Source: a virus. Taken from it: a stretch of 64,000 nt of DNA. The position numbers and the translations under genes are program-made. Of this stretch, positions 3,544 through 62,257 are shown in pieces. The stretch lies in IMG/VR virus record IMGVR_UViG_3300048838_001413, positions 4,836-68,835 of that record; one strand, given 5' to 3'. Within the stretch, counting starts at the first letter, position 1; every line of letters begins with the position of its first letter. Under the pieces are notes generated by a model. That model was given only the letters and a program-made list of their open reading frames with translations. It ran no database searches and had not been told where the DNA came from.

Positions 3544-4809
3544 TTAAGCCACTTCCAATTCGAGGACTTTCTTTATTTTCCGTATATTTTTTTTCACGGT
3601 TTTGATTATTTCGTCATGGTATTCCGTTGGCTGATTAAACTTTCCACGGGATTGCCTGATGTCGAAACTTTCGAGGTTAACTTCAATGGTTTCGAGCCTT
3701 TGTTCGCCTTTCTTTGCGCTAAGGATAAGGCTTTCGGGTTTTGCGTAATATTTGTTTTCAAATACGCAATGGTGTAACACATCGCCCTCGATCTGAAATT
3801 CCTGCACACTTTTAAGCGGGGTAATTTCGATATCCTTGCTTTTGATAAGCAGGTCGAAGAATTTTTCTTTTTCCTGTTGAAATTGTGCTTCGGCTTCCCT
3901 GATCTTTTTCGCATTTTCCTCAGCCGTTTGTTTACGACGAAATTCAGCCCGTTTTTTTGCCCAATAATCATGAGCCTGTTGCAGGTTTTCGGGGCATACA
4001 TACTTCGGGTTGCGTGTATCTTTGCCGAAAACAGTGAGATTATCAACCATATCCTGCCAATTGGTTACGTCAGAAACGATGTAATTATTCCGGATGCAGA
4101 TTTTAACGGTTGGCCAGTATTTATCAAGATTAAAACCTTTCACCAAATAATAGCCCAAAAGGTTCATCTGCTTTGCTTTCAGCAGGGTTTCGGCTCTGCA
4201 ATCCGTAATAATAGCCGGAAACAAATCAGAAAAGCTGATCGGGTGGCAGTCTTTTTCAAACCCGTTGCGCTTGATAATATCGATTACTTTTTGCCTCGGG
4301 TAAACGAACGGGAACAGGCGGTAACGCTGATGGAAATTCCGTATTTCCATTTCTGAGTTAAATGACCATAAATCGTAATAAAAGTAACTCATGCCGGTAC
4401 GTTTGGCGATGATGGTTTCTTTGCCATTGCTGTCGTACCACAACTGAACCACTTCGCTCCAAAAGTATTGGGCTTTTTTACCCACCTTGCAACTTTTTTC
4501 CACCCAAAAATATCTAACCACCTGATAGCCGTTTGATACGGTAAGAATTGCAGCATATTCTTTTCCGCTACAGGTTCGCGCTTTAGTACCGAGCAGTTCA
4601 AATGCTGAGCCACATTCGGGGCAGGTGTTTTCTTCGCCCTTATTAGGCCAGCGATGGCCGCACTCAAAACAAACGTACTCTTTTTTGGTGCGATAGCCCC
4701 AATTCGGGAAGCAGTTCTTAAACGCCCACGCCTTTTGCACTGCCGTGATTTTTGGCAGCTTTTTGCTCAGGCTGAGGATCTTTTCCTGTGTTTTATTTTT
4801 CGGCTTCAT
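3544..4809 (-). CDS. PcfJ domain-containing protein
   Basis: Zn ribbon CFECGH...CPECG; C-terminal EGDVLHHCVF...ETIEV...QSRG; adjacent to PcfK. Confidence 0.85.
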   Translation of the reverse strand: MKPKNKTQEKILSLSKKLPKITAVQKAWAFKNCFPNWGYRTKKEYVCFECGHRWPNKGEENTCPECGSAFELLGTKARTCSGKEYAAILTVSNGYQVVRYFWVEKSCKVGKKAQYFWSEVVQLWYDSNGKETIIAKRTGMSYFYYDLWSFNSEMEIRNFHQRYRLFPFVYPRQKVIDIIKRNGFEKDCHPISFSDLFPAIITDCRAETLLKAKQMNLLGYYLVKGFNLDKYWPTVKICIRNNYIVSDVTNWQDMVDNLTVFGKDTRNPKYVCPENLQQAHDYWAKKRAEFRRKQTAEENAKKIREAEAQFQQEKEKFFDLLIKSKDIEITPLKSVQEFQIEGDVLHHCVFENKYYAKPESLILSAKKGEQRLETIEVNLESFDIRQSRGKFNQPTEYHDEIIKTVKKNIRKIKKVLELEVA

Positions 4810-8895: not shown

Positions 8896-9174
8896 TTATT
8901 TTAAATTCTCATTATAGGGATATTTCCCCACACCATAAGGAAATTGAACTTTTTGCAAAATGGGCACATGCGCATTCCAAACAACGCGGATAGTTTGCCC
9001 ATTATAAAGCAACGAAATATCACCGGCTGAATAGAACGATCTTTGCACCAATCGTTTCCAATTGGCAATGAGTTCCTTTTTCGTTTTTATACGCCACCCA
9101 ATGTAGCTGTTTCCATACCTGACAACGTATTTGTCGGGTAAACTGTCGCTATAAGCATTCCAAATTCTTTCCAT
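8896..9174 (-). CDS. Hypothetical protein (start MERIWNAY)
   Basis: ATG downstream of the ATTGGAAAATTTT motif. Confidence 0.65.
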   Translation of the reverse strand: MERIWNAYSDSLPDKYVVRYGNSYIGWRIKTKKELIANWKRLVQRSFYSAGDISLLYNGQTIRVVWNAHVPILQKVQFPYGVGKYPYNENLK

Positions 9175-10998: not shown

Positions 10999-11235
10999 TT
11001 ATTCCCAATAAGCAATTTCAGACAACCGGTTCATGTTTTGCAAACCGGTGAAATGGTTGATAATTACCACGCTGAAAATGAAATTAGACGGGATATTAAG
11101 TACATTCGAGCAATAGCACTTGGCAACATTTACCGATTCAAACGCAGCCCCTTTTTCGATGTGATTATTCACATAATATGCAAGCCACGAAAGGGCTAAA
11201 AATTGCTGCGAGGTGAGATTTTTTTTGTAATCCAT
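10999..11235 (-). CDS. Hypothetical protein, first gene of the early region
   Basis: Start 16 nt after repeat copy 10. Confidence 0.7.
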   Translation of the reverse strand: MDYKKNLTSQQFLALSWLAYYVNNHIEKGAAFESVNVAKCYCSNVLNIPSNFIFSVVIINHFTGLQNMNRLSEIAYWE

Positions 11236-11251
11236 TTTCGTAATTATTATC

Positions 11252-11284
11252 GGCAGGGGTAACGGAGGCCGGCTGCCACTCTCC
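11252..11284 (-). repeat. Leader pseudoknot repeat, copy 10
   Basis: Identical core to copy 9. Confidence 0.9.
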
Positions 11285-11334
11285 TTATTATTACGTATAT
11301 ATATAACCGGCTGTCGTTCAGCGGTTTACAAATG

Positions 11335-11364
11335 CAAAGTTAACACTAAATTTGCATATGTCAA
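11335..11364 (-). promoter_or_regulatory. Bacteroidetes housekeeping-sigma promoter driving the early region
   Basis: Minus strand TTG-N19-TAACTTTG matches the -33/-7 consensus (TTTG/TAnnTTTG). Confidence 0.7.
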
Positions 11365-11730
11365 GCATTTACAGAAATATTTTTTATTCAGCTGATTTTC
11401 AGTACTTTGCAAGGCTTAATATATATGTTACCGACATACTAAAAAATGCCACAATATAAGGAACGGGCGCGCACGAATGGATTATATAGTGCAGATACTT
11501 TTTGCTGCATACTGGATTATTTTTTACCCGAAAATTAATCACGGGAAAAATTATCCCGAAAATAGTTATTCACGTTTGAGTGATCGGCCAAAAATTTTCC
11601 AATTTTTTTAAAAGCCCTTTATAGTATTATTCAAACGCACGTGAACACACGTACACGTATAGCCAACAGCTTGATAATCAAGCAGTTGCAAACGGCCGTT
11701 TACCTGGTAAGGGGGTAAAAATTGAGTAAT

Positions 11731-12246
11731 TCAGGCAAACGATCAGGCAAACGATCAGGCAAACGATCAGGCAAACGATCAGGCCAACGATCAGGCCAAC
11801 GATCAGGGAAACGATCAGGAAACGATCAGGAAACGATCAGGGAAACGATCAGGAAACGATCAGGCAAACGATCAGGCAAACGATCAGGCAAACGATCAGG
11901 GAAACGATCAGGGAAACGATCAGGCAAACGATCAGGGAAACGATCAGGGAAACGATCAGGCAAACGATCAGGCAAACGATCAGGAAACGATCAGGGAAAC
12001 GATCAGGAAACGATCAGGGAAACGATCAGGCAAACGATCAGGGAAACGATCAGGGAAACGATCAGGGAAACGATCAGGGAAACGATCAGGCAAACGATCA
12101 GGGAAACGATCAGGCAAACGATCAGGCAAACGATCAGGGAAACGATCAGGAAACGATCAGGGAAACGATCAGGCAAACGATCAGGCAAACGATCAGGCAA
12201 ACGATCAGGAAACGATCAGGGAAACGATCAGGGAAACGATCAGGCA
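11731..12246. repeat. Tandem array of 43 x 11-12 bp units AAACGATCAGG(C/G/-)
   Basis: Direct count of GATC-containing units. Confidence 0.97.
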
Positions 12247-12247
12247 T

Positions 12248-12281
12248 AAAAAAAACCGGCCGCAAATTTGCGGCCGGTTTT
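12248..12281 (-). terminator. Intrinsic terminator (possibly bidirectional)
   Basis: AAAACCGGCCGCAAA-TTTGCGGCCGGTTTT hairpin with an A/T tract. Confidence 0.8.
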
Positions 12282-12302
12282 AATACGGGAAAAAATAATT
12301 TT

Positions 12303-12791
12303 TTAGCTTAATGCCGCCTGAACATCGGGCAAATGTTTAACACTAAATATCCAGCCGGCTACCTTTTGGCCGTTTACGTTTAAAAACCCATTGAAGCGGC
12401 CGTTTAACGATTTTAAAACGTCCTTTATTGGCTTTGTGTCACCAATAACGGCAAAGCATTTTTCAGAATAGCTTATAATCTGAATTTCGGCGGGGGCTGC
12501 TGCTGCTTTTGCTTTTGGGGCTGCTGCTGCTTTTGGAAGTTGTTTTTTTACTTTTGGGGCTGCTGCTGCTTTTGGGGCTGCTGCTGCTTTTGGGGCTGCT
12601 GCTGCTTTTGGGGCTGCTGCTGCTTTTGGGGCTGCTGCTGCTTTTGGGGCTGCTGCTGCTGCTGCTGCTTTTGTTAGTACTGTAGTTGTTGTTGTCTTGT
12701 TTTCGTTAATTAATGCCATTATCATTGTAGCGGCATCTTTATCGCTGAGGTTCAGCGACTTAACGTAAGAAATTGTTTCATGTGTGTTCAT
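12303..12791 (-). CDS. Protein with histone H1-like AAAAPK repeats and a C-terminal YSEK-F-V-GDT domain
   Basis: 18-bp tandem repeats encode AAAAPK; has its own promoter and terminator. Confidence 0.75.
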   Translation of the reverse strand: MNTHETISYVKSLNLSDKDAATMIMALINENKTTTTTVLTKAAAAAAAPKAAAAPKAAAAPKAAAAPKAAAAPKAAAAPKVKKQLPKAAAAPKAKAAAAPAEIQIISYSEKCFAVIGDTKPIKDVLKSLNGRFNGFLNVNGQKVAGWIFSVKHLPDVQAALS

Positions 12792-12856
12792 AACGTATTG
12801 ATTTTAAGTGTGTTAGGTTCGTGACCGGCAGAACCTCGAAGCCGTTTGAAAGGACA

Positions 12857-12886
12857 AAGATAATATACATTTGCTGCTTTTGTCAA
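12857..12886 (-). promoter_or_regulatory. Bacteroidetes-type promoter for 12303..12791
   Basis: Minus strand TTGACA...TATCTTTG. Confidence 0.6.
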
Positions 12887-13000
12887 GTGTTATTTTTTAT
12901 CCGGCATATTATGTAATTGATTTTCAAGCTATTGACAAACGAAATTTAGAATCATTCTAAATAAGCCGTTCTATGTGTACCCGCCTGGGCGCGCGATATG

Positions 13001-13054
13001 TATCGCACATGCGAAACATATCGCACATGCGAAACATATCGCACATGCGAAACA
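13001..13054. repeat. 3 x 18-bp tandem repeat TATCGCACATGCGAAACA with an internal palindrome
   Basis: Each unit contains TCGCA-CA-TGCGA; a degenerate fourth copy follows. Confidence 0.9.
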
Positions 13055-13319
13055 TATCGCGCACACGAATTAAATCACCCGCGCGAATCATTACGCGCGC
13101 GCGCGATCATTTCGCGAAGGTATTCGTATGTAGGTAGGCTGCATATATCACCGAACAAACCGCACACAAACACACCATTCCATTAGGGCAAGCGCGGGAT
13201 CAATCAACACATAAACAGATCAAAAACGGTGGTTTTACGAGGGCTTACGGCCATATGCGTTTGAGCATGTGCGGTTTAAGCCCGGCTACATATGCAGGTA
13301 GAATGGATGGGATTTTGCC

Positions 13320-15035
13320 TTAAAAGCGAGGGTCAACGAAGGTGCTTTGGCGATGCAGGCGCGAGCCGTATTTTGTCCAGATGCGCTTGTCAACGGCATC
13401 GCCGAAGTGCGTAGCTTCTTCGGGGAGGACTGATTTGCGCTGCTCCGAACGCTTGTCTTTTTCGAACTTGCCGTTTGTTTCGCGCAAGCCCGTGTTTGTC
13501 ATGCTTATGAGCGTGTATTTACAGTTTTTGCCATTGAAAATGACCTTTGGGAAACCACTGTTTTCGCCTTTGAGTATGTTGAGCCAAAGCAGATATTTTT
13601 CGTGCTGAGGCGGTTCCATGCCCTTATGCACCTGCTGGCGAACTACCCATTTGTTTCGTATAAAACGATCTATGGCTTGTTCGTTGTAGGGTTTTGAGTT
13701 TTTGGCATTGGGCTGGCGGTGATCTCCGTACCTGTCGCGGAAGTAAATGACTTCTTTTTTGATGTGATTTTCGTAGTATTGGCAGAAATCATCAACCAGG
13801 TCGTCGATCATAACGCCGGAAGATTCGTCGGGTTTGACGTAAAATTCGTTTATGACACAATCCACGGGTTCAACCATGTTGTTTACGAAGTTGAAGTTCC
13901 GCTCCTGGCCAACGGAGAAGAGGCTGATCTTCGCGCCCCAATCGGGGCATACCTCGAGGGGTGCATTGGGATTGCAATCGAGATCCATTTGGGAATTGTG
14001 TTTCCCGAGTTTTTCGAAATCGTAATTTGAGTTTAAGGCCAGTGATTGAATAAACGCGTCGTTGGTTGCGCTGTAGTACACATGGCGGGTGTTGTCGATG
14101 TGGTAGTAACAGTTTTCGACGCGATCGATAACCCAGTTGAGAATTTCGATAAGGAAAGTGAGCAGGGCTTGTTTATCGTATTCACGGACGATGTAGCTCA
14201 TTCCAAGGTTTTCGATGTTGTCGAACGCATTGGCCAGGGTAAAGAGAACGCCGCTTTTGGAAGTGAACGGAGTAATTTTCTGCTTCAGGCGGATGATTTC
14301 GTTCCAAAGGGATTTGAAGAAAGCGCGGTCGCTGTTTTTGTAGGCTGAAATAAGGTCGAGCTGAAGTTTAACAATGCGGTTCCATATCTCGAAAAGCCTG
14401 ATTCCGGCTTCTTCTTCGTAGTAATCGGCATATTGAAGGAGCCATTTTTGTTCGGGCATGAAGGGCATTGAACTGACGTACCTGAAGCCGTGGTGCTGTT
14501 TGATGGGGTTTTTACACCTGATGCCGAAATGTTCCTCGTTGCCACGGTTTGTGGGCGATGTTTCCTGATCGTATCGCTCTTTGTTGATGGTGAGGGCTTC
14601 GTCAACGATTTCGCGGTCAACGTTGGGTCCTCTGGAGCTTCCGATCCTTTCCTGGGAAAGCATGAGGAACCCGGTGCCATTGCTGAACGAAATGAAGTTT
14701 TCGTATTTAAGCACAGGCTCGAGAGGGGTAATGAAGCTTCGCGGTGGTTTTTGGCCGATCACGTAATGTCCTCCGACACCGGGTTCGTACTTTTTATAGC
14801 CAATTTGTTCGAGAAACTTAAAGGTAGATGGGAGTGTACGTGTGAGCAGCTGGCCGTATGTTTGTCCGGTAATTGAACAAATAGACCGTGGCATTTCGCG
14901 CGAAACTTTGTTCATTTCCCAACCCACGATGAAGCTTTTCCCGGTACCACGCCCCCATATATCGACTTCGGATTTTGGGTTGTTGGCAATGGAGATCAGC
15001 TGAGGATTATTGAGTTTAATGAGTTCAGGAATCAT
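13320..15035 (-). CDS. Terminase large subunit
   Basis: Walker A GRGTGKS, Walker B IVDEA, C-terminal nuclease-like acidic motifs (DWG...THFGDAVD). Confidence 0.85.
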   Translation of the reverse strand: MIPELIKLNNPQLISIANNPKSEVDIWGRGTGKSFIVGWEMNKVSREMPRSICSITGQTYGQLLTRTLPSTFKFLEQIGYKKYEPGVGGHYVIGQKPPRSFITPLEPVLKYENFISFSNGTGFLMLSQERIGSSRGPNVDREIVDEALTINKERYDQETSPTNRGNEEHFGIRCKNPIKQHHGFRYVSSMPFMPEQKWLLQYADYYEEEAGIRLFEIWNRIVKLQLDLISAYKNSDRAFFKSLWNEIIRLKQKITPFTSKSGVLFTLANAFDNIENLGMSYIVREYDKQALLTFLIEILNWVIDRVENCYYHIDNTRHVYYSATNDAFIQSLALNSNYDFEKLGKHNSQMDLDCNPNAPLEVCPDWGAKISLFSVGQERNFNFVNNMVEPVDCVINEFYVKPDESSGVMIDDLVDDFCQYYENHIKKEVIYFRDRYGDHRQPNAKNSKPYNEQAIDRFIRNKWVVRQQVHKGMEPPQHEKYLLWLNILKGENSGFPKVIFNGKNCKYTLISMTNTGLRETNGKFEKDKRSEQRKSVLPEEATHFGDAVDKRIWTKYGSRLHRQSTFVDPRF

Positions 15036-24812: not shown

Positions 24813-24892
24813 GGATTCAATTTTTAAGGGGTTAAACGGAGGTGTAATTCACAAAAAAAATAAATATTCACAGGGTTGAGGCTATAAATGCC

Positions 24893-25120
24893 ACCTACAA
24901 TCAACTACACTCAACTACAAGCATTAAAGTGCTAATAAACAGACGACTAACGGAACTACAAAGGACATAAAAGTGTAGCTATTGTAGTTATTTGTAGTTT
25001 TTAAGTTAATTTGTAGTTGAGTGTAGTTGCTTGTAGTTTTGGGCAATGTGGTTGTAGTTTTCATAAGTAGCTGATTTTGTGTTTTTATGGGTTTGTAGTT
25101 GAGTGTAGTTGAGTGTAGCT
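24893..25120. repeat. Iteron-like TGTAG(T/C)T repeat cluster, putative replication origin
   Basis: About 14 copies in inverted and direct orientation, often 10 bp apart, just downstream of the primase gene. Confidence 0.7.
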
Positions 25121-25133
25121 GGGGTTTTTTACT

Positions 25134-32780: not shown

Positions 32781-33038
32781 TTATTTGAATAAATCAAGTT
32801 GATCAAGTTTTTTCTTACTGGTTTTTGAGTCGATAACTTCGACTTCGTTCAGGTACATTACCGGATTTTTAGGATCGAGCAGAAAAGATGCGAGAATCAT
32901 TTTGGTTCCGATATATTCGTCGAGAAGTTGTTGTGCTTCTCTCCTGGCTTCGGATATACTGCCGACGATAACGCCTTCGTGTTGCTTGTATCTTGAATCG
33001 ATACAGAATACAATGTATCGTAAATCCGTGATATCCAT
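32781..33038 (-). CDS. Hypothetical protein
   Basis: 85 aa, ends QLDLFK. Confidence 0.65.
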   Translation of the reverse strand: MDITDLRYIVFCIDSRYKQHEGVIVGSISEARREAQQLLDEYIGTKMILASFLLDPKNPVMYLNEVEVIDSKTSKKKLDQLDLFK

Positions 33039-36188: not shown

Positions 36189-37313
36189 ATGGAAAAGTAC
36201 AGAAAAGCAAAGCTTAATGACCGGGACAATGATTTGTTGAAACAATGGTATGTTGAGTATATGTTTGAGCATCCGGAAAAGGGTGTTCTTGTTCCCTTCA
36301 GGAAGTATATTTCATTAAAACTTAAAACAGGTACGGCACGCAGAATGAAAGCGGATCAGTTGGTTCGTGAGTTAAATGAGTGGCTGGCTATGGGCGGAGA
36401 TCCGTTTGCAACGGAGAGCCTGGGAAAAACAAAAACACTTACGGCCGTAAAACGGATTCTTGCGCTGAAGAAAGCCACCAGCCGGCCACGGACTTATACT
36501 ACCTATAAGGATGCTGTAAATAAGATTGAGAACTTTTTGATTGAGCGAAAGCTGACTGATCTGGCGGTTGAGGATGTTTCGGTAACGGTTGGCCAACAAT
36601 TTTCGGATTACCTGATAGAGAAGCTCCGGCTCGGGAACCGGAGCCATAACAATATGATTAATAATATGCGAACGATGTGGACGATGATGAACAAGCGATT
36701 TAACGTTCATATCAATCCATGGCAGGCGGTTGATTTTTTGCCGGAAACAGAGCCAAGTATCGTGATGTTTACGCCGGCAGAAATGAAAAAGGTAAGAACG
36801 CAGCTTCGCAAAGATGATTTCCAGTTGTGGCTTTGCGCGGGATTGGTTTTTTATTGTGCTTTGCGGCCACAGGAGATTGTAAGATTGAAGGTGTTTAATA
36901 TTATAACCGAGGAAGAGGGTTTGCTGCTTGACGGGCGAATAACGAAGAATAAGAAAAGCACATGGGTGAATATTCCATCGCCTGAACTTGTGAAAGATTT
37001 TAAAAGCCTGAAGCTTGAAAGCCTGGATTCGGAAATGTATATTTTCGCGAAGAATTTGTTACCAGGTACAAAAGAGATAGCGCCTACCCGAATAGCTGAG
37101 CGTTGGCGAAAGTGGGCTGATGCGAATAAGATAGATAAGGGAATTTATGATTTGAAACACAATGCTGCCGGGATGGCCAGTGATGCAGGAATACCCTTGC
37201 GGGAATTGCAGCTGCATTTCAGGCATCATTCGCTGGAGCAGACAGAGCAGTATATAAAGCGATTCAGGCGGGAGGTAAATACAGGATTTAATAAGCGCTA
37301 CCCGAAGATGTAA
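36189..37313 (+). CDS. Tyrosine recombinase (phage integrase)
   Basis: ALRPQEI, TKNKK, YDLKH, RHHSLEQTEQY catalytic boxes. Confidence 0.9.
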   Translation: MEKYRKAKLNDRDNDLLKQWYVEYMFEHPEKGVLVPFRKYISLKLKTGTARRMKADQLVRELNEWLAMGGDPFATESLGKTKTLTAVKRILALKKATSRPRTYTTYKDAVNKIENFLIERKLTDLAVEDVSVTVGQQFSDYLIEKLRLGNRSHNNMINNMRTMWTMMNKRFNVHINPWQAVDFLPETEPSIVMFTPAEMKKVRTQLRKDDFQLWLCAGLVFYCALRPQEIVRLKVFNIITEEEGLLLDGRITKNKKSTWVNIPSPELVKDFKSLKLESLDSEMYIFAKNLLPGTKEIAPTRIAERWRKWADANKIDKGIYDLKHNAAGMASDAGIPLRELQLHFRHHSLEQTEQYIKRFRREVNTGFNKRYPKM

Positions 37314-38353: not shown

Positions 38354-39680
38354 ATATTTCCATTACAATACAAAGTCCATCAGCACCATCACCACCATTG
38401 CCACCTGAGTAGCCGTTTGTTGAAGCTGCACCGCCTCCGCCTCCGCCTCCGTAATTACCTCCGTTACCTCCGTTGCCTGAGTTGGCTGCTGATGCGCTGC
38501 CGCCTCCCGACCCTGACGTACCGTAGCCATGCGTGGTTGCAAATAATCCGTAGGCTTGTAGTAATTGATCGCCCCAATTATCAACACCGTTATTCCCACC
38601 GCCTCCTCCTGCTGTTCCAAATAATATTGCTGCGCTTTGGGCATCCGAAGCGTTGTACATTCGTGCCCCTACTCCGCCATTCCTTTGCGTATTTGAAGCG
38701 TCGAGCCCACCCCCCCCTGATCCACCAAAATACCCAAACCCGGTAGTTTTTAATACAGTTGAAATCGTTCCTCCTCCTACTCCTCCTGTTGGATTTGCTG
38801 ATGCGCCGCTGTAATAAGCTATCGGGTGAATAGAATAAAATTCTTGCGGAGGAATTTGATTAGCAGTTGATAGAGGTGCGCTTACTTCTCCACCTGAAGT
38901 AATCCCGCCTCCTTTACCGTTACTTCCTCCAAGTGCTTTGCATAGTATCCCAAATGTGGTATCTCCCCCAGCATTTCCATTACCCCCATCAGTATTATCT
39001 GCCGATATTGTACCGCCTGATCCAGCAGAACCGACAGTAATAGTTTCAGTATCGCCCAACTGACTTGCTAATATTAATCTTTTTATAATAATGCCTGCAC
39101 CGCCTCCGCCGCCACCCCTTCTAACTGTTCCTGCTGCGCCCCTTCTGCCTGCGCCACCGCCTGCACCTGCACCAATACAAACCACCACTATAGCATAAAG
39201 CCCCGTAGGTTTAGTCCAAGTCGCACCGGATGTATAATATCGCACTATCGGGTCGGTGCCGCCGCCGCCGGATTCAACCGTTCCTGTTACGCCAAGAATA
39301 ATAATATCTTTTTTGATATTTGCAGCGATAATCTTAGCCTGTTCGGTTGCAGAAATCTTTACAACGCCACTTCCTGAGTGTTTCCCGGATGCGATGGTTA
39401 CTTCCTGAGCAACGGTTGTTATGTCGGTTGAAACAGTACCCCGATCAACCATTGTTCCTGTTTTACGGGGTGTTGTGCCTGCATAAAAGGTTTTTGAAGC
39501 GACAACATCGCCAACGGCTGCATCGGCATCGGATATATCAGTACCGGCAGGAATGCTTGCAATAAGGGTGTCGTATTCGTCAAGTTTGGTTGTTCCGACT
39601 GTCACACCTTTAGCCTCTAAAGCTGTTTTCATGTCAGCTTTGGCAGTTTGAAGTCTTGTTATTTCGCTGGCTATACTCAT
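38343..39680 (-). CDS. Glycine-rich tail fibre protein
   Basis: SIASEITRLQTAK N-terminus; TWTKPTG...IGAGAGGG Gly-rich domain. Confidence 0.75.
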   Translation of the reverse strand: MSIASEITRLQTAKADMKTALEAKGVTVGTTKLDEYDTLIASIPAGTDISDADAAVGDVVASKTFYAGTTPRKTGTMVDRGTVSTDITTVAQEVTIASGKHSGSGVVKISATEQAKIIAANIKKDIIILGVTGTVESGGGGTDPIVRYYTSGATWTKPTGLYAIVVVCIGAGAGGGAGRRGAAGTVRRGGGGGGAGIIIKRLILASQLGDTETITVGSAGSGGTISADNTDGGNGNAGGDTTFGILCKALGGSNGKGGGITSGGEVSAPLSTANQIPPQEFYSIHPIAYYSGASANPTGGVGGGTISTVLKTTGFGYFGGSGGGGLDASNTQRNGGVGARMYNASDAQSAAILFGTAGGGGGNNGVDNWGDQLLQAYGLFATTHGYGTSGSGGGSASAANSGNGGNGGNYGGGGGGGAASTNGYSGGNGGDGADGLCIVMEIYGG

Positions 39681-39883
39681 AAGGCTGCTAATAAGGTTTC
39701 GATGTCACCTAAATCTGCTTCGTTTGGCATGGTTGTGTAAGTGTTTACACCCGTACCGACGGCGATTCTTTGTTCATCAGTAATCCAATAGGGTTCAGCC
39801 TCAAATAAGTCGTTGGCTGTTTTCTGCGCTTCGAGGTTTGCCCTCGTTGTGCGAAGAAGCTGAATTCTTATTTTCCTGGCCAT
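39677..39883 (-). CDS. Small tail-associated protein
   Basis: IQLLRTT...EPYWITDEQRIAVG, similar to the N-terminus of the neighbour. Confidence 0.6.
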   Translation of the reverse strand: MARKIRIQLLRTTRANLEAQKTANDLFEAEPYWITDEQRIAVGTGVNTYTTMPNEADLGDIETLLAAL

Positions 39884-40503: not shown

Positions 40504-40767
40504 TTAAGGTTGAAAAAGCCCTCCGAATATTACTCCGGTCAGGTGTTCTGCATTTACTTGTTTTGCGTCTTTTGGTTTGATTGTGGTTAAAGTGTCAGCC
40601 TCCCAAAGAGTATCGCCCGATGGTCCGGGTAGTCCTTGTGGTCCAACTTCTAATCCCATCTGCACCGCCTGTAAATGAATAGGTTCTTCAATCTTAACAG
40701 ATTGAAGATTTATGGCCGGTTCAACGCGCACATTTAATGGAATAGGAATGTCAACACCTTCGCTCAT
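40504..40767 (-). CDS. Small tail-associated protein with a short collagen-like stretch
   Basis: GPQGLPGPSG. Confidence 0.6.
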   Translation of the reverse strand: MSEGVDIPIPLNVRVEPAINLQSVKIEEPIHLQAVQMGLEVGPQGLPGPSGDTLWEADTLTTIKPKDAKQVNAEHLTGVIFGGLFQP

Positions 40768-41084
40768 TTTATCAGTTCTTTTGTGATTGTGAAGGTGCCT
40801 GCCAGTATAGTGATTGGACCTTGCTGGTTAACAACTTCAACCTCGTAGTTGTGACTTCCTGCCTTTCCCTTTGTATCAACAGGCAGCAGAGGAATGGTAA
40901 TTGTTTGAGCCTCGATTGTTAAACCAGCCGGGTTTTTTATGAGTATCCTTCCGGCTTTATCAGTTACGCGAAAGTTAACGGTACGGCCAGTCATATTAAG
41001 CGCTTCAGGCACAATGATTACAATATCGGCGATATCGCCGGCCTGTCGCGTGAGATTGATGTTAGCTTTTAAATAAGTTGGCAT
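40764..41084 (-). CDS. Ig/BppU-like tail protein (start MPTYLKA)
   Basis: Beta-rich; ATG follows a late promoter motif. Confidence 0.55.
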   Translation of the reverse strand: MPTYLKANINLTRQAGDIADIVIIVPEALNMTGRTVNFRVTDKAGRILIKNPAGLTIEAQTITIPLLPVDTKGKAGSHNYEVEVVNQQGPITILAGTFTITKELIK

Positions 41085-56970: not shown

Positions 56971-57566
56971 TAGTATCCTTTTTCTTTGTCGCGTTCGTTA
57001 CCATCGTTCAGGCGATAGAGAAACTTAGCTGTTCGCCGGTCGCCAAACCACCAGGTAATTACAGAAACGGTGAGGTAAATCACCACGTCGCTTATTTCGG
57101 TGAACATTGCTCTGGCTTGTTCGGCCGACAATAAAGGTTCTTTGGCTGTAATGATTTCGATAACCTTGAACGTGAGGATTGTGGTGAGGGCAGTGAGATA
57201 CATTGTAAGTCCGGGACGGATAGAAGCACGCACAGTGTCAACCAGACCCATAAGGAACGCAATGAGTTTGCCGGTTTTGCTGCCATTGGCAGTAAGCAGG
57301 GAAAGTTTTTCGGCGGTAAGTACATCGGCCTGAGCGCCTTTGAGGCTTTCGAGATAAGCAGAAGCTTCGGCTTGCTCGATGGCAGCTTCGGTTCGGGTAG
57401 TTTCGACAGCGATCAGCAGTTTGGCTTCCTGTTCGCGTTCTTTGATGTCGAATTCCCTCATTTTGAGGTCGTGTTCGTTTTTGAGTTTCTGAGTTTTCAG
57501 ATTGGTGAAGCTGGTGATGATGTTTCCGAGGAATCCGGTAGCGACACCGAGGATTGTTTCAATCAT
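56970..57566 (-). CDS. Holin-like membrane protein
   Basis: VRASIRPGLT...TM helices...WWFGDR; adjacent to the endolysin candidate. Confidence 0.6.
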   Translation of the reverse strand: MIETILGVATGFLGNIITSFTNLKTQKLKNEHDLKMREFDIKEREQEAKLLIAVETTRTEAAIEQAEASAYLESLKGAQADVLTAEKLSLLTANGSKTGKLIAFLMGLVDTVRASIRPGLTMYLTALTTILTFKVIEIITAKEPLLSAEQARAMFTEISDVVIYLTVSVITWWFGDRRTAKFLYRLNDGNERDKEKGY

Positions 57567-57984
57567 TGTTGATGATTTTGAGGTTAAAACTATTGGAGAG
57601 TCCTATTTTTAGTGACATTTCGGAAAAAGCTTTGGTAGAATTGAGGATAGCCCTCTGATTTTTGATTTTACCCTGGTATGCACCGGGTAAAATGCAGCCA
57701 CGGGAATGGGTGAGGAAGTTTTTGCGGGTATCTCCGGCCAGATTGCCCTTGTGAAAGAGGACATATGATCGACCGGGGACATTGGAAACGATCCAGCATC
57801 GTCCGAATTTCGGGCTTTTGTAGGGTTTGCAGATATAATCCCCAGCAGGGATACGCGAAAAGCCAACCTCGTTATCGCGTTCGGGCAATTCGATGATGTG
57901 TACTTTGAGGCCAACTGAAGGCGCGATAAGTACAGCGAATGTACCCTGATCGGTAGGTTTTGAACGAATAAGGAAAGCATCCAT
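57559..57984 (-). CDS. DUF5675-family putative endolysin
   Basis: RIPAGDY, VPGRSYVLFHKGN, SRGCILPG. Confidence 0.75.
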   Translation of the reverse strand: MDAFLIRSKPTDQGTFAVLIAPSVGLKVHIIELPERDNEVGFSRIPAGDYICKPYKSPKFGRCWIVSNVPGRSYVLFHKGNLAGDTRKNFLTHSRGCILPGAYQGKIKNQRAILNSTKAFSEMSLKIGLSNSFNLKIINND

Positions 57985-58329: not shown

Positions 58330-58353
58330 AAAAAAGGCCGCTGAGCGGCCTTT
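58330..58353 (-). terminator. Intrinsic terminator
   Basis: AAAGGCCGC-TCA-GCGGCCTTTTTT on the minus strand. Confidence 0.75.
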
Positions 58354-58360
58354 CGTGTAA

Positions 58361-58741
58361 TTATAACAGGTTGGAATCGGGAGGAGGGAGAGGTTCTTTT
58401 TTGGCAGTGGGTACCAGGTATGTAAACCGGTACCAATCGGCCAGGCGATTAACAGCAGGGGTGAGGGCGGCTATATCGGCAAGGTCGGGGCTGAGAGATC
58501 CGGGAAAAATTCTGACCGAGGCAATAAGCACGGCATCGCGGTTGGTGCCTGTAATGGTGCTGAGGAACTGCAGGTTGTGATACTGGTGGTATTTTTGCAG
58601 GTATTCCTGCTGATCGAGCGCTGATTGCCTTGACGTGTGCCTGAAAACCTGAAACAGCATAGCGGCTTTACTGTTCTGAAAGAAAATGAACTGTTTGTTG
58701 TCGGTGCTTGTGAGAAGTAATTTGGCGTTTTGTTTTGGCAT
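58361..58741 (-). CDS. Hypothetical protein (start MPKQNAK)
   Basis: ORF ending just before the terminator. Confidence 0.6.
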   Translation of the reverse strand: MPKQNAKLLLTSTDNKQFIFFQNSKAAMLFQVFRHTSRQSALDQQEYLQKYHQYHNLQFLSTITGTNRDAVLIASVRIFPGSLSPDLADIAALTPAVNRLADWYRFTYLVPTAKKEPLPPPDSNLL

Positions 58742-58861
58742 TGCGGGTTTTTTTTGGTGATGTGAATGAGTTGCGTATATATTTTTGGTGATACACGCCA
58801 AATGGTTTCCGCGATTAGCGGGGGATTGGGGTTATTGCGGGTATATATTCGTTGGCAGCAA

Positions 58862-59095
58862 TTAAAGCCCCAACGAGCGGCATATTTCAAACCTTTTTTG
58901 ATCTTTCCCCTGTTCATGTACATATTTAAGCACATCTGACCATCGATTGAATTTATCCACTTTAATATCACCCCAGCCGGATAATTCATAGGTTGAGAAA
59001 TATTTGTGTTTAAATCCTAAGTTGATTAAGGCATCAACAACATCTTTTTGAAATTTTGTGAGCTTTTGATATTGCTCTAATTCGTCTTTTTCCAT
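58862..59095 (-). CDS. Cassette 1 hypothetical protein (start MEKDELE)
   Basis: Between GTTGGCAGCA (58851) and TGCTGCCAAC (59111). Confidence 0.7.
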   Translation of the reverse strand: MEKDELEQYQKLTKFQKDVVDALINLGFKHKYFSTYELSGWGDIKVDKFNRWSDVLKYVHEQGKDQKRFEICRSLGL

Positions 59096-59113
59096 CTGAT
59101 TAAAATTAACTGC

Positions 59114-59207
59114 TGCCAACAGGTCGGTATGAAACAAGCCGCCGACAGCGATTTACAACTTTGAACAGTCTTACAAGCGGCCTGTTCATACCGCCAATGC
59201 GTTACCT
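59114..59207 (+). other. attC-like site 1
   Basis: TGCCAAC-aggt-CGGTATGAAACAAGCCGC...GCGGCCTGTTCATACCG-ccaatgc-GTTACCT. Confidence 0.85.
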
Positions 59208-59393
59208 GCCATTTTTACGGACATAGTAACCTACTAATCTTTTATGCTGAGATTCTTCCATTTTTTTAACAAGCTCTTTAAGAATTTGCAAGGTTTCGCT
59301 TTCATTTTGTTCATCGTCTGCGCCATCGGTATTGTGACCGATGAAATCTATTGCATCTTCAACCGCTTGTATATATTTGCTTTTTACGTGCAT
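59202..59393 (-). CDS. Cassette 2 hypothetical protein
   Basis: Between GTTACCTGCC (59201) and GGCAGGTAAC (59410); stop codon lies inside the R box. Confidence 0.7.
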   Translation of the reverse strand: MHVKSKYIQAVEDAIDFIGHNTDGADDEQNESETLQILKELVKKMEESQHKRLVGYYVRKNGR

Positions 59394-59412
59394 AATTTTG
59401 AAATAAAACGGC

Positions 59413-59509
59413 AGGTAACAAACAGTTTATAAAATGCTACGAGCCAAATAAGTGAAGTGAGTTGATTGGTAATTTTAGACAGCACTTCACAAACTGCCAT
59501 TCGTTGGCA
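59413..59509 (+). other. attC-like site 2
   Basis: AGGTAAC-aaa-CAGTTTATAAAATGCT...AGCACTTCACAAACTG-ccattc-GTTGGCA. Confidence 0.8.
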
Positions 59510-59514
59510 AACAT

Positions 59515-59802
59515 TTAAGATTCGTAATCAACAAGGCTTATGTGCGCTTGAAATTCAGGCGTTATCTGATAGATTTTTTTGCCTTCACGAATAATAAAAT
59601 GTGGTTCAAGTCTCAAATGCTGACAAACAAGCTTGATGCTGTTCATCGTTGAGTTATACTTTTGATTGGCTTTCTCAACCAATCGTTCAGCTTCTCTAAT
59701 TTCTTGGAGAGCTTGTTTTTGTTCTTCGGATAAATTGACAAGCATTTTAACGCCTTTGTCTTTATCTCCCTGTAATTCGTTGACTATTTCTGAAAATGAC
59801 AT
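59515..59802 (-). CDS. Cassette 3 hypothetical protein (start MSFSEIV)
   Basis: Between GTTGGCAAA (59503) and TTTGCCAAC (59816). Confidence 0.7.
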   Translation of the reverse strand: MSFSEIVNELQGDKDKGVKMLVNLSEEQKQALQEIREAERLVEKANQKYNSTMNSIKLVCQHLRLEPHFIIREGKKIYQITPEFQAHISLVDYES

Positions 59803-59817
59803 AATTAAAAAACGATT

Positions 59818-59947
59818 TGCCAACACTGCATAAAATTAAGCGGGCAGTGTTGTTATGTTTCCGCTTTTGGCTCTTTATTAAATTTTATTTCGGGCGGACA
59901 ATTCCGAGCCTTGAAAGCCCGCCTAATCTTATGCTTGAACGTTAGCG
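59818..59947 (+). other. attC-like site 3
   Basis: TGCCAAC-act-GCATAAAATTAAGCGGGC...GCCCGCCTAATCTTATGC-ttgaac-GTTAGCG. Confidence 0.85.
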
Positions 59948-59948
59948 G

Positions 59949-60539
59949 TCATTTTAAAGAGCATCCCGACTCCGACATTACCCAATCAAACATTCCACCG
60001 AAAAACTTTTCAGGATTATCAAACGCTTCCTTGCACTTTGATAAGAACAATTCCATTTTAGGCAATTCAGGCAAGTGCTTTTTTTCTACATTCCATAAAA
60101 GCTGATTAGGCTTTAGAACAAGTCCATTGGTTTTTACTTCCTCTAAATGTTCACCAAGCATCATATAATGAAATGCAGCTTTTATAGTTGGGCTTCTATT
60201 TGCCCCAGCTTGACAATGAAGTAATACTTTCCATTCAGGATTCCAAGTATAGATTTGATGTAAAACTTGCAATGCTCCAAACATTGAGTTTAAACCCATC
60301 AGTTCGCCACTTTCTCCCATCGGGAAATAGTAGTTAAGTTTTCCTTCTTTCATTATTTCTTCTGAATTACCTAAGTAAAATTCGTCTGATACGTTAATTA
60401 TTACTTGACATTCATTGTGTTTGCCTTCCGCTTTTATCTCTTTTGAAACAGGAAATCTATCAACGATTATGTTCTCGGAAATAAAACGAACCGCTAACAT
60501 CGGTTGGGCAAAATTGCCGTTTTCGTTTTCAATTGACAT
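59949..60539 (-). CDS. Cassette 4: protein-tyrosine / dual-specificity phosphatase-like protein
   Basis: CX5R loop VLLHCQAGANRS; between GTTAGCGGT (59941) and ACCGCTAAC (60490). Confidence 0.75.
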   Translation of the reverse strand: MSIENENGNFAQPMLAVRFISENIIVDRFPVSKEIKAEGKHNECQVIINVSDEFYLGNSEEIMKEGKLNYYFPMGESGELMGLNSMFGALQVLHQIYTWNPEWKVLLHCQAGANRSPTIKAAFHYMMLGEHLEEVKTNGLVLKPNQLLWNVEKKHLPELPKMELFLSKCKEAFDNPEKFFGGMFDWVMSESGCSLK

Positions 60540-60616
60540 TTTATCTTAATTTAAAAATTTGTAATCCTAATGAAGTTTTGTGTTCGGCAACTTCGCCAAG
60601 CCGAGAACCGTTACCA
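60492..60616 (+). other. attC-like site 4
   Basis: CGCTAAC-a-TCGGTTGGGCAAAATTGCCG...CGGCAACTTCGCCAAGCCGA-gaacc-GTTACCA. Confidence 0.85.
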
Positions 60617-60622
60617 GCAACT

Positions 60623-60868
60623 TTAAAAAGGCAGCCCCGACTGAGCAAGCCGATACTGGCTCATATATTCATCGAAGTAGTAACCTTCTTTTGTTGGTGG
60701 ATTACAATTTTTATCTACTCCATCATTCCAACCTTTGAGGCGGACAAAATAACCAGATTTGCTTTTGTGAAGCTGATTTACACACTGCTCATCAGAAAAG
60801 TATGCTGGTAACACATTATTGCCGACAATGTCGGGTTCTGGGTGTTCTTTAATATCCATGCTATTCAT
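60623..60868 (-). CDS. Cassette 5 hypothetical protein
   Basis: Between GTTACCAGCA (60610) and TGCTGGTAAC (60803); start lies inside attC 5. Confidence 0.65.
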   Translation of the reverse strand: MNSMDIKEHPEPDIVGNNVLPAYFSDEQCVNQLHKSKSGYFVRLKGWNDGVDKNCNPPTKEGYYFDEYMSQYRLAQSGLPF

Positions 60869-60938
60869 ACATATTTGTTTTAAGTTGAAAATTTGTGCTG
60901 TTTAAACCGCCACTGCGGCAATAATCTGACCGTTAGCA
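60806..60938 (+). other. attC-like site 5
   Basis: TGGTAAC-ac-ATTATTGCCG...CGGCAATAAT-ctgacc-GTTAGCA. Confidence 0.85.
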
Positions 60939-60945
60939 GAAAGCA

Positions 60946-61176
60946 CTACTCCATCGCTTCGTTAATACTTCCTACTGCTTCATCAATGCTATTCCACGCA
61001 TCCTCTAATGTTGAAACAGCTTCTTCAAACTTTTGTCCCTTTTCAGTTTGTTGCAATCCTTCTGAAAGGTTGTCAAACTTTTCTTGTTCACCATCTTTAA
61101 TGGCATCAATAATTTCTTGTGCTTCGCCAAGTAAAGCAAGAGCCTTTTCTAATTCTTTTCTGTCGTTTTTGTTCAT
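60946..61176 (-). CDS. Conserved small phage protein
   Basis: EQEKFDNLSEGLQQTEKGQ motif. Confidence 0.75.
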   Translation of the reverse strand: MNKNDRKELEKALALLGEAQEIIDAIKDGEQEKFDNLSEGLQQTEKGQKFEEAVSTLEDAWNSIDEAVGSINEAME

Positions 61177-61741: not shown

Positions 61742-62212
61742 TTAATGATTTATTTGGGCACATAATTCTTTTCCTGTTAAAATTACAACGATTTTAAGGG
61801 TGCTTAATTCGCGGCCAAATTTGCGAACAACTTCCTCAATTTTTTTGATATGCCGTTCGCGGGCTTTGTCGGAATTTTTGTACCGGTTAAAAACAATGGA
61901 GCTGAGAAATTCACGGGTGTGGCCAGTGTATTTTGCTATACCCGCCACCGTAAAGGGGTAACGATCAAAGAACTCAGCAACATCCATGCTTCCTTCTTCA
62001 TCGAGTCCCGAAAGCCTTATGCCCGATAACTCAGCTCCGATCTTGTTCAGATATTCATTCACCAGCACCAGGTTATTGTAGTCGGTATTGGTGTATTGTT
62101 TGGTTTTTGTCAGTTTTACAATCCATTCGCGGCTCCGGTGCAGCGAAACAGCAATCTGACTTTGTTTGAACGGGTATTTTTCAAATACCATCTGAAGATT
62201 TAACATCATCAT
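61742..62212 (-). CDS. Tandem double-HTH-like regulator (start MMMLNLQ)
   Basis: Internal duplication FEKYPFKQSQIAVSLHRSREW / FDRYPFTVAGIAKYTGHTREF. Confidence 0.65.
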   Translation of the reverse strand: MMMLNLQMVFEKYPFKQSQIAVSLHRSREWIVKLTKTKQYTNTDYNNLVLVNEYLNKIGAELSGIRLSGLDEEGSMDVAEFFDRYPFTVAGIAKYTGHTREFLSSIVFNRYKNSDKARERHIKKIEEVVRKFGRELSTLKIVVILTGKELCAQINH

Positions 62213-62226
62213 AATTTTTTTTTTGG

Positions 62227-62257
62227 CAAAGATAAGTACATATGTGGCAAATGTCAA
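62227..62257 (-). promoter_or_regulatory. Bacteroidetes-type promoter of the operon containing the cassette array
   Basis: Minus strand TTG-N20-TATCTTTG. Confidence 0.7.

Follow-up and report, generated by a model that had tools for sequence, protein, structure and literature searches.

A five-cassette array in a tailed-phage genome probably belongs to an integron-like system of phages

Integrons are regarded as a bacterial device. The stretch of DNA considered here, called the window throughout, comprises 64,000 nucleotides (C1:4836-68835) of the 68,835-bp IMG/VR virus record IMGVR_UViG_3300048838_001413. Near one end of the window, five small open reading frames (ORFs) alternate with five long imperfect hairpins. 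This region is probably a recombinase-less array of five gene cassettes, part of an integron-like system that lives in phages, most likely those of Bacteroidota. An initial annotation, made from the letters alone, had described a phage-borne integron cassette array with inverted genes, probably served by a host integron-integrase (IntI) in trans. Its anatomy and orientation were largely right, and its enzyme was probably wrong.

The five palindromes bounded by AAC and GTT, 94-133 nt in length, all lie where they had been placed, at 59114-60938 (hairpin limits run from the 7-nt AAC box to GTT+4). Five ORFs occupy the minus strand, and each is bracketed by one exact inverted box pair of 9-10 nt; the R-box pairs that had been listed around the genes thus recur in full (5/5). 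In the direction of transcription, the array and its putative cassettes read as follows.

60932..60943, minus strand: distal array boundary, AAC box CTTTCTGCTAAC of the first hairpin; no complementary partner in the window
60806..60938, minus strand: hairpin E, 133 nt; its loop holds the ORF5 ATG
60623..60868, minus strand: ORF5, 81 aa, no family; cassette 5 = 60611-60932; box pair GTTACCAGCA (60610) / TGCTGGTAAC (60803)
60492..60616, minus strand: hairpin D, 125 nt; its loop holds the ORF4 ATG
59949..60539, minus strand: ORF4, 196 aa, dual-specificity-phosphatase-like, motif HCQAGANRS; cassette 4 = 59942-60610; box pair GTTAGCGGT (59941) / ACCGCTAAC (60490)
59818..59947, minus strand: hairpin C, 130 nt; 18-bp stem on the coding strand
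59515..59802, minus strand: ORF3, 95 aa (103 aa from a GTG at 59826), no family; cassette 3 = 59504-59941; box pair GTTGGCAAA (59503) / TTTGCCAAC (59816)
59413..59509, minus strand: hairpin B, 97 nt; the weakest of the five
59202..59393, minus strand: ORF2, 63 aa, no family; cassette 2 = 59202-59503; box pair GTTACCTGCC (59201) / GGCAGGTAAC (59410)
59114..59207, minus strand: hairpin A, 94 nt; two single-base bulges on the GTT arm (coding strand)
58862..59095, minus strand: ORF1, 77 aa, no family; cassette 1 = 58852-59201; box pair GTTGGCAGCA (58851) / TGCTGCCAAC (59111)
58841..58862, minus strand: proximal array end, lone AAC box ATTGCTGCCAAC followed by GAATATATAC; no hairpin after it

The two boxes of any one hairpin do not match beyond AAC and GTT. 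The match always spans the gene, as expected when cassettes have been joined at one constant point within the box. No partner for the last GTT box (GTTAGCAG, at 60932) exists anywhere in the window, and the AAC box CTTTCTGCTAAC is interpreted as the left half of what was originally the insertion site. The pairing of boxes is difficult to attribute to chance. Ten 9-nt pairs of the form GTTN6...N6AAC, 150-900 nt apart, occur in the window, against a mean of 4.43 (maximum 11) in 200 shuffles; five of the ten are concentrated in a segment of 2.1 kb for which the expectation is about 0.15, and there each gene has one pair, placed exactly at the hairpin ends. Scanning the 68.8-kb genome for hairpins returned six clusters, namely the five of the array and an iteron region (24890-25125), while ten first-order Markov shuffles gave 0-5 clusters, with a mean of 1.9.

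These pairs bear on the proposal that the hairpins are copies of a miniature mobile repeat, such as a miniature inverted-repeat transposable element, a repetitive extragenic palindrome or an IS200/IS605-type element, lodged between pre-existing phage genes. Copies resembling hairpin D do occur in many contexts in two lake-water sequencing runs, and in run X2 D-like pieces are found in at least 13 contigs, with breaks at 60491-60495 and 60612-60613. However, the box pairs bracket genes and not hairpins, whose own boxes are unmatched. The five ORFs also have no PHROG family match, unlike the flanking gene at 60946-61176; the G+C content of the array region is 0.35-0.37 against approximately 0.44-0.47 in the surrounding phage DNA; and neither target duplications nor a transposase accompany the hairpins. 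A mobile-repeat origin is hardly credible.

The array belongs to a wider family that is found in other viral genomes. Its box syntax is that of the family: AT-box-AAC and GTT-box-GT, with a 12-bp R helix and a T:G pair on the coding strand. One relative, the 48-kb viral contig L024, has a cassette with an ORF4 homologue (84% identity) together with D-like hairpins. The array of this contig ends in a lone box (TGGTGCTAAC, at 14215-14224), and a tyrosine recombinase gene adjoins it on the same strand. The encoded protein has 266 aa and is Xer-like. Its identity to IntI1 is 27%; the alignment is gapped over IntI1 residues ~197-265, and the protein is without the ~48 residues where IntI1 has its specific insertion. 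Against the integron-integrase profile TIGR02249 it scores 156 bits (cut-off 265), and it lies under the cut-offs of the XerA, XerC, XerD and IntI models alike.

The association of this recombinase with hairpin arrays is systematic. In IMG/VR, 215 relatives of the enzyme were found, from which 80 loci were kept. At least two hairpins lie within 4.5 kb upstream of the gene in 49 of the 55 loci that have at least 1.5 kb of upstream sequence, and at least three in 41. In total, 234 kb upstream of the recombinase contain 233 hairpins, whereas shuffled versions of the window genome yield approximately 0.03 per kb. The recombinase-sense strand gives the better hairpin in 215 of the 233 and the other strand in 8, a count in which a few identical loci are entered repeatedly. 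A junction, AAC↓TATnATATA (the arrow marks the junction or crossover point here and below), stands at a fixed distance before the gene in 58 of the 59 loci left after removal of duplicates, preceded by a variable box that ends in TAAC. The site itself is AAC↓TATTATATATA, and its counterpart in the Polaribacter Freya phages is AAC↓ACCCCTATAAC. The junction box has an exact 10-nt partner upstream in 36 of these 58 loci, and in 27 of the 36 this partner is located at the 3' end of a detected hairpin. At the proximal end of the window array, AAC GAATATATAC fits the same attI-like pattern, which has 8 matches in the 128 kb of both window strands, one of them exactly at this position.

Five large records that carry such platforms, 256-362 kb in length, are viruses that CheckV scores as 85-100% complete, one with terminal repeats, and rpoB was found in none of the five. 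At E<=1e-40, 4760 recombinase clusters were counted among the 8000 candidates scored; among the 120 of the 4760 clusters that were listed, source names are XerD or integrase and never integron integrase. The nearest relatives in GenBank phages (~38% identity) are annotated as 'integrases' of Polaribacter Freya and Cellulophaga Ingeline phages. Together, these data tilt, if not strongly, towards a broader proposition: that Bacteroidota phages across a range of sizes, with 40-kb siphoviruses at one end and jumbo phages above 250 kb at the other, operate an integron analogue of their own. It would consist of a 266-aa recombinase that is Xer-like and has no IntI insertion, a site of attI type (AAC↓TATnATATA), and hairpin cassettes with genes on the recombined strand, often starting in the loop. 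Phosphatases, ADP-ribosyltransferases and methyltransferases would circulate by this means among unrelated phages, and recombinase-less arrays would be serviced in trans at co-infection.

The limits of a cassette, and the strand on which it is defined, are decided by comparative evidence from array ends, breakpoints and indels. In arrays of the family, the last lone 10-nt AAC box is the exact reverse complement of the GTT box of the last hairpin in 9 of 10 rows, including that of the window. The AAC box of the first hairpin is without a partner in 8 of 10, and the first boxes of other arrays also start with CTT. Boxes chain as in the window in L017, L024, L012 and L028. Breakpoints fall at the same place. 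The sequences of L024 and L005 match at 100% for 5437 nt before parting within AACGGTT, 5' of a hairpin; homology between L012 and L013 begins at an AAC box; and a Logan contig 96.5% identical to the window, which covers ORF4 and hairpin D, breaks off at 59941.

Cultured Polaribacter phages provide a further case. Freya_10 is equivalent to Freya_9 with the addition of one 307-nt unit of hairpin and ORF, located next to the integrase gene. The unit reads ...CCAAC↓GTTCT-hairpin-GTTAGCAAC-ORF-GTTGCTAAC↓ACCCCTATAAC..., and in Freya_5 and Freya_6 other units differ at the same ...CCAAC↓ACCCCTATAAC junction. The cassette-precise indels by which the initial annotation proposed to judge the array are therefore present in relatives of the system, although no close relative of the window phage itself was found. 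In the records of Freya_1 (L124) and Freya_8 (L127), the first nucleotide falls exactly on an AAC junction or immediately behind it (positions 4098 and 903 of Freya_10), and their assembly or choice of start may have followed these breakpoints.

On the coding strand, a cassette begins at AA↓C, takes in the hairpin and the ORF, and extends as far as the following AA↓C. Because the coding strand is the better folded (see below) and breakpoints fall at the AAC 5' of the hairpin, the cassette is taken as hairpin plus ORF, inverted relative to the classical form. In every interval of the related arrays that has an ORF (30/31), the longest ORF lies on the folded strand and in the sense of the recombinase, as it does in the window (5/5). 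All five window ORFs are on the minus strand and opposite to canonical cassettes, as the initial annotation had stated, and folding, breakpoints and the Freya indels agree with this orientation. The inversion is supported. It characterises the whole family and is not peculiar to the window array. Linkage of ORF4 to its hairpin across older relatives was also considered as a one-sided marker of the cassette. It proved unclean on either side, and the crossover was therefore placed from near-identical pairs only.

Folding with DNA parameters supports the assignment of the minus strand as the folded one. Energies for the minus and plus strands of the five window hairpins are -17.8/-14.6, -11.4/-11.3, -18.0/-15.5, -15.8/-11.3 and -17.2/-14.1 kcal/mol, so that the minus strand is more stable in four and equal in the fifth. 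A stem score that tolerates G:T pairs ranks minus above plus in 5/5. In hairpin B, the attC-type stem includes several G:T pairs and is not the minimum-free-energy fold, and it scores 37 on the minus strand and below 26 on the plus strand. When the five are pooled with 31 hairpins from 8 related loci (n=36), the coding strand is more stable in 33, with a mean difference of -1.96 kcal/mol; it also has 1.83 against 0.86 G:T pairs and a purine content of 0.54. These values resemble those published for the recombined bottom strand of 263 attC sites, which is favoured by 2.12 kcal/mol (-2.12), has 1.24 against 0.39 G:T pairs, and is enriched in purines (Nivina et al. 2016, PMC5027507). The 94-133 nt of the window hairpins also lie within the attC size range of 57-141 nt given in the same source.

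A bias of this kind could be expected of hairpins that act as RNA. Under this explanation, they would be stabilisers, processing sites or translation platforms of a polycistronic transcript, the box pairs would be incidental, and no site-specific recombination would be involved. The G:U-compatible pairs do lie on the transcribed-sense strand, and two of the four terminator-like hits on the minus strand are stems of array hairpins. In addition, the A/T-rich hairpin loop contains the start codon (ATG) of the ORF that follows in 9 of 31 intervals, and in 2 of 5 in the window. ORF5, for example, begins within the hairpin E loop and continues across the 3' arm and GTT box (...DIVGNNV↓LPAY), and ORF4 starts in frame in the loop of hairpin D (MSIENENGNFAQPM↓LAVR). 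Exact gene-flanking box pairs of 9-10 nt (5/5), the chaining of boxes in other arrays, the cassette-precise Freya indels and the L024/L005 breakpoint all argue against an RNA role as the whole explanation, and the hairpins have no Rfam match. An RNA role may coexist with recombination but cannot replace it, and on its own it is very improbable.

Site geometry departs from that of attC, and in this respect the description of the sites as canonical attC does not stand. On the coding strand, the AAC arm has a modal spacer of 5 nt and the GTT arm one of 1-2 nt, whereas attC has 5-6 nt on both. The stem of ~19-20 bp is mostly unbroken; irregular bulges are more numerous on the 3' arm in 7 and on the 5' arm in 5 of 33 hairpins. 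The attC bottom strand has two or three extrahelical bases on the arm opposite its AAC triplet, spaced by a 6-bp stem, but regular extrahelical bases at attC positions were not found in these 33 hairpins. A control, the aadA1 attC of R100, showed 5- and 6-nt spacers and two extrahelical bases. Extrahelical bases were consequently dropped as a criterion of orientation, the family having no regular ones and its spacer asymmetry pointing the other way. The R boxes are also longer, at 10-12 bp with a T:G pair at position 11, compared with 7 bp in attC.

This geometry is relevant to a further alternative, in which the region is a classical cluster of attC sites lacking an integrase (CALIN), its true attC sites placed by a host IntI and still recombined in trans, and in which the Xer-like neighbour is an ordinary phage integrase. 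AAC and GTT ends, box complementarity, a size of 94-133 nt and a bottom-strand-like bias would all be expected of attC. Phage CALINs are also documented: Qi et al. (2023, PMC9892861) reported integron components and 17 CALINs in phage genomes, and IntI1 recombined 5 of the 6 phage attC sites tested there. The phage P12002L, which is in that set, has three hairpins of similar look on its coding strand. Several lines of evidence nevertheless count against it, beginning with the spacers, the lack of regular extrahelical bases and the R-box length. No IntI was found in the window genome by TIGR02249 profile search. A PF00589 search of four further viral records yielded the Xer-like recombinase in G001, below the TIGR02249 cut-off, and no tyrosine recombinase at all in the other three. 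Finally, arrays at 49 of 55 recombinase loci, and the junction motif at 58 of 59, are hard to credit as coincidence. A classical CALIN is an unlikely explanation.

The preferred reading, an integron-like system of phages, leads to the following mechanism. On the coding strand, a unit comprises AA↓C, a 5-nt spacer, a stem of ~19 bp, an A/T-rich loop, the return stem, a spacer of 1-2 nt, the GTT box, the ORF, and a complementary box ending in AA. Crossover would take place at AA↓C on the coding strand, equivalent to G↓TT on the plus strand, and so the hairpin would travel with the ORF downstream of it. A single strand would be exchanged. Whether one at a time or together, the five cassettes would have entered an attI-like site (CTTTCTGCTAA↓C GAATATATAC) that separated two phage genes. 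They would now be expressed as part of the phage operon, whose transcript would start at ~62257 and end at the terminator at 58333. The enzyme is predicted to be the 266-aa Xer/IntI-like simple tyrosine recombinase without the IntI insertion, whose gene, in complete platforms, stands directly 3' of the array after AAC↓TATnATATA. Since the window phage has no such gene, present-day shuffling of its cassettes would need the enzyme to be supplied in trans, for example by a co-infecting phage. A phage recombinase in trans is likelier than the host IntI favoured earlier because the same hairpin family is systematically linked to the phage-borne Xer-like enzyme. The window array would then be the CALIN equivalent of the phage system, situated at an attI-like site and co-transcribed with neighbouring phage genes.

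A number of observations weigh against this reading. The first group concerns the folded strand. The spacer is longer on the AAC arm in 28 of 33 hairpins, a sense opposite to the extrahelical-base rule of attC, and because this asymmetry is reversed, structure alone leaves orientation unsettled. In a class 1 control (R100 and three plasmids), the scanner found two genuine attC sites, those of aadA1 and aac(6')-IIc. They show the expected sign with differences of just 0.2-0.4 kcal/mol, which makes for a weak control of two sites, and reliance was therefore placed on the published set of 263. The G:T bias of the coding strand could arise in part from selection on the mRNA. The hairpin sets themselves come from a purpose-built AAC..GTT scanner with its own thresholds.

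The second group concerns the cassette limits. In homologues of ORF4 with 84-86% identity, the point of attachment to a different hairpin is precisely GTG↓TTAGCGG. In L004, an E-like hairpin (77.7% identity) precedes ORF4 and is in frame with it (...AIVGNNV↓LAVR); in L007, a different hairpin precedes ORF4; and in L024, a D-like hairpin precedes a different ORF. Logan contigs resembling ORF1 break at 59119-59121. It appears from these alignments that, over longer times, ORF and hairpin also separate at the GTT box. Such separation is not predicted by a one-sided crossover. It would require crossover on the other strand, homologous exchange, or cassette formation that occurs repeatedly.

The third group concerns the window phage and its enzyme. 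No close relative of the phage was found among GenBank phages by megablast and blastn, and there is therefore neither an empty site nor an indel for the window array. The window genome is without any member of the array-linked recombinase family. A second recombinase-less example is a 100-kb, CheckV-complete virus (G004, equivalent to L028), which has two separate arrays, at 366-1721 and 11094-13222, and no tyrosine recombinase of any kind. Throughout the family, the putative link between recombinase and array is one of adjacency.

Other routes to a relative or an excised form gave little. In IMG/VR, a search with the protein of 61742-62212 produced no match, and one with the protein of 57559-57984 a single match of 37% identity. 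The locus L037, considered as an empty site, was unusable: it has an ORF6 homologue (60946-61176; 78% identical) in an ordinary phage context without hairpins. Window sequence is present in two sequencing runs only, each with a small share (0.07), and these runs contain breakpoints and no joint across a cassette. A joint 60513->60591 (side 23) was rejected as an excision product, as it occurs in one contig and lies inside hairpin D, and it was treated as a variant hairpin.

Compared with known systems, the phage arrays combine shared and divergent features. In common with integrons and CALINs, they have single-gene units between imperfect AAC...GTT hairpins, a box after each hairpin whose complement lies beyond the following gene, one strand that is better folded, with more G:T pairs and rich in purines, and a crossover at AA↓C that precedes the hairpin when that strand is read 5' to 3'. 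The order of a phage platform is that of the classical bottom strand, attC, gene, attI and intI, as checked on R100. In contrast, phage-family ORFs are on the folded strand, downstream of the hairpin, whereas classical ORFs are on the top strand, upstream of attC. Unlike classical cassettes, the phage units often hold the start codon in the loop, and the linked recombinase differs from IntI in having no IntI insertion. Set against a complete integron platform, the window has an attI-like junction sequence only, with no adjacent recombinase gene, whereas its relatives have analogous counterparts of both. The definition of a CALIN asks for two or more attC sites on a single strand within 4 kb, with no IntI nearby; the window array has this spacing and lacks IntI, and its hairpins are not canonical attC.

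Two other arrangements invite comparison. In the first, Xer-dependent single-strand integration by integrative mobile elements exploiting Xer recombination (IMEX) of the CTX-phage type, a simple Xer recombinase acts on a folded single-stranded DNA hairpin, one strand is exchanged, and replication resolves the product. The binding arms are ~11 bp, and whole genomes are inserted into the host dif site by host XerCD. The likeness to the phage system lies in the simple Xer-family recombinase and the folded hairpin. Neither multi-cassette arrays nor a recombinase gene beside an attI-like site is known in CTX-type IMEX. In the second, the 'inverted integron-integrase' integrons of Treponema and others (Cury et al. 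2016, PMC4889954), recombinase gene and cassette ORFs also share one strand. There, however, intI is inverted relative to attC and upstream of the array while the cassette ORFs remain on the top strand; in the phage family, the recombinase is in the classical position relative to the hairpins and the ORFs are inverted instead.

A phage-borne cassette array as such is not new, in view of the components and CALINs reported by Qi et al. (2023). This was the only literature found on a phage integron analogue, and none was found that describes such site geometry, cassettes whose genes lie on the recombined strand, or a phage-encoded platform served by a recombinase other than IntI. The Freya paper (PMC8776804) gives an integrase and genomes of 44.0-48.9 kb; 'hairpin', 'indel' and 'variable region' have 0 occurrences in it, and cassettes are not mentioned. 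This phage version of the integron is apparently widespread and undescribed. The evidence points to a gene-capture platform that is native to phages and abundant in them, unlike the occasional integron fragments and CALINs, and that is distinct on three counts: another enzyme of the Xer/IntI lineage, opposite gene polarity, and a site geometry other than that of attC. If this is true, it would explain how small accessory genes, probably for host takeover or counter-defence, move between unrelated phages, and why metagenome assemblies break in such regions. It would also offer a natural experiment on the evolution of hairpin recombination sites and of IntI-type specificity. The analogue is directly testable, because the cultured Polaribacter Freya phages show single-cassette differences beside the integrase.

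Among the cassette genes, ORF4 is the one with a recognisable relationship. Its match to Pfam DSPc (E=1.3e-5) reaches 25.4 bits, under the cut-off of 33.5 bits. It has 112 homologues, many with precomputed PF00782, and H108, C109, G112, R115 and S116 are invariant across 30 sequences. In representative bacterial genomes there is one real relative (49%, in a metagenome-assembled genome of Peregrinibacteria), without an array. Gene ends are set close to the boxes: ORF stops lie inside the next AAC box or within 16 nt of it in 16 of the 30 intervals with an ORF, and the TAA stop of ORF2 sits within the AAC box GGCAGGTAAC.

The wider genome is that of a tailed phage. The record is 100% complete according to CheckV, and PHROG matches include a tape measure protein (1.5e-84), a primase (1.1e-91), a DNA methyltransferase and a head maturation protease. 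The claim that the array stands in a phage genome without IntI is borne out by these matches and by the TIGR02249 search. The following features flank the array or relate to its expression and mobility.

60946..61176, minus strand: phage gene ORF6, phrog_4068 (E=4.7e-21); upstream of the array in the sense of transcription
58361..58741, minus strand: phage ORF of 126 aa from its ATG; downstream of the array; phage-like G+C; not a recombinase
62229..62257, minus strand: promoter-like site TTGACA-17-TATCTT; a consensus match only, which could drive the array operon
58333..58353, minus strand: terminator-like hairpin and T run; 10-bp perfect stem (inverted pair), read by eye; putative operon end
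36189..37313, plus strand: tyrosine recombinase, 374 aa; the only one in the genome; 21 kb from the array

The sole recombinase had been taken for a normal phage integrase, and this is what it is: distantly Xer-like, 21% identical to the L024 enzyme, and unrelated to the array-linked family. A phage promoter had been proposed at 62227-62257. The site TTGACA-17-TATCTT, at 62257->62229, is the best of its region, with 10 of 12 consensus matches, but promoter-like sites in the region are not enriched (14 against 11.3 in shuffles). The -7 promoter motif of the Bacteroidetes type is TAnnTTTG, and it too is not enriched in the window, with 48 matches against 61 expected. The terminator placed near 58330 is visible by eye as a stem and T run but absent from the output of the scan, because its loop is below the minimum length of the tool.

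Several further observations concern the related arrays. The contigs L055, L072, L074-L076, L089, L109 and L122 end 31-185 nt upstream of the recombinase gene, and L023 and L025 end inside the array. Since assemblies seem to break at arrays, array frequency is probably underestimated. In L024, 10263-10787 and 7307-7834 encode an ART-PolyVal ADP-ribosyltransferase (5.9e-19) and an Rv2179c-like 3'-5' exoribonuclease (1.1e-8), respectively, and 8 of the 10 ORFs tested among array cargo and neighbours have no Pfam family. The same contig has, at 8980-9046 and 13485-13560, a near-identical hairpin with a leader of ~90 nt containing TAnnTTTG-like motifs, followed by unrelated ORFs, which suggests that such leaders may bear promoters and travel with the hairpin. 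At L024 8230-8300 (equivalent to L005 4046-4116), a D-like hairpin before an ORF4 homologue has lost most of its 5' arm and retains the loop and the 3' arm encoding the N-terminus (MSIEEQNGNFAKPV); decay of the site seems to have immobilised this cassette. P12002L (L129) has hairpins of the same architecture on its minus strand, at 32791-32924, 39516-39709 and 40758-40948, again on the coding strand. An annotated 44-aa gene, gp57, lies entirely within one of the hairpin loops, and the genome annotation lists no integrase.

Two repeat features of the window complete the description. At 24890-25125, upstream of the primase gene, an intergenic cluster of TGTAGTT(G) and ACTACA repeats in both orientations is iteron-like and may be a replication origin or a regulator-binding array. 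At 58740-58758 and 58834-58852, two copies of a direct repeat, ATTGCGGGT(T8/ATATATT)xGT, are 79% identical and 94 nt apart; one copy adjoins the proximal junction of the cassette array, and the repeat may have arisen by duplication of part of the ancestral insertion site.

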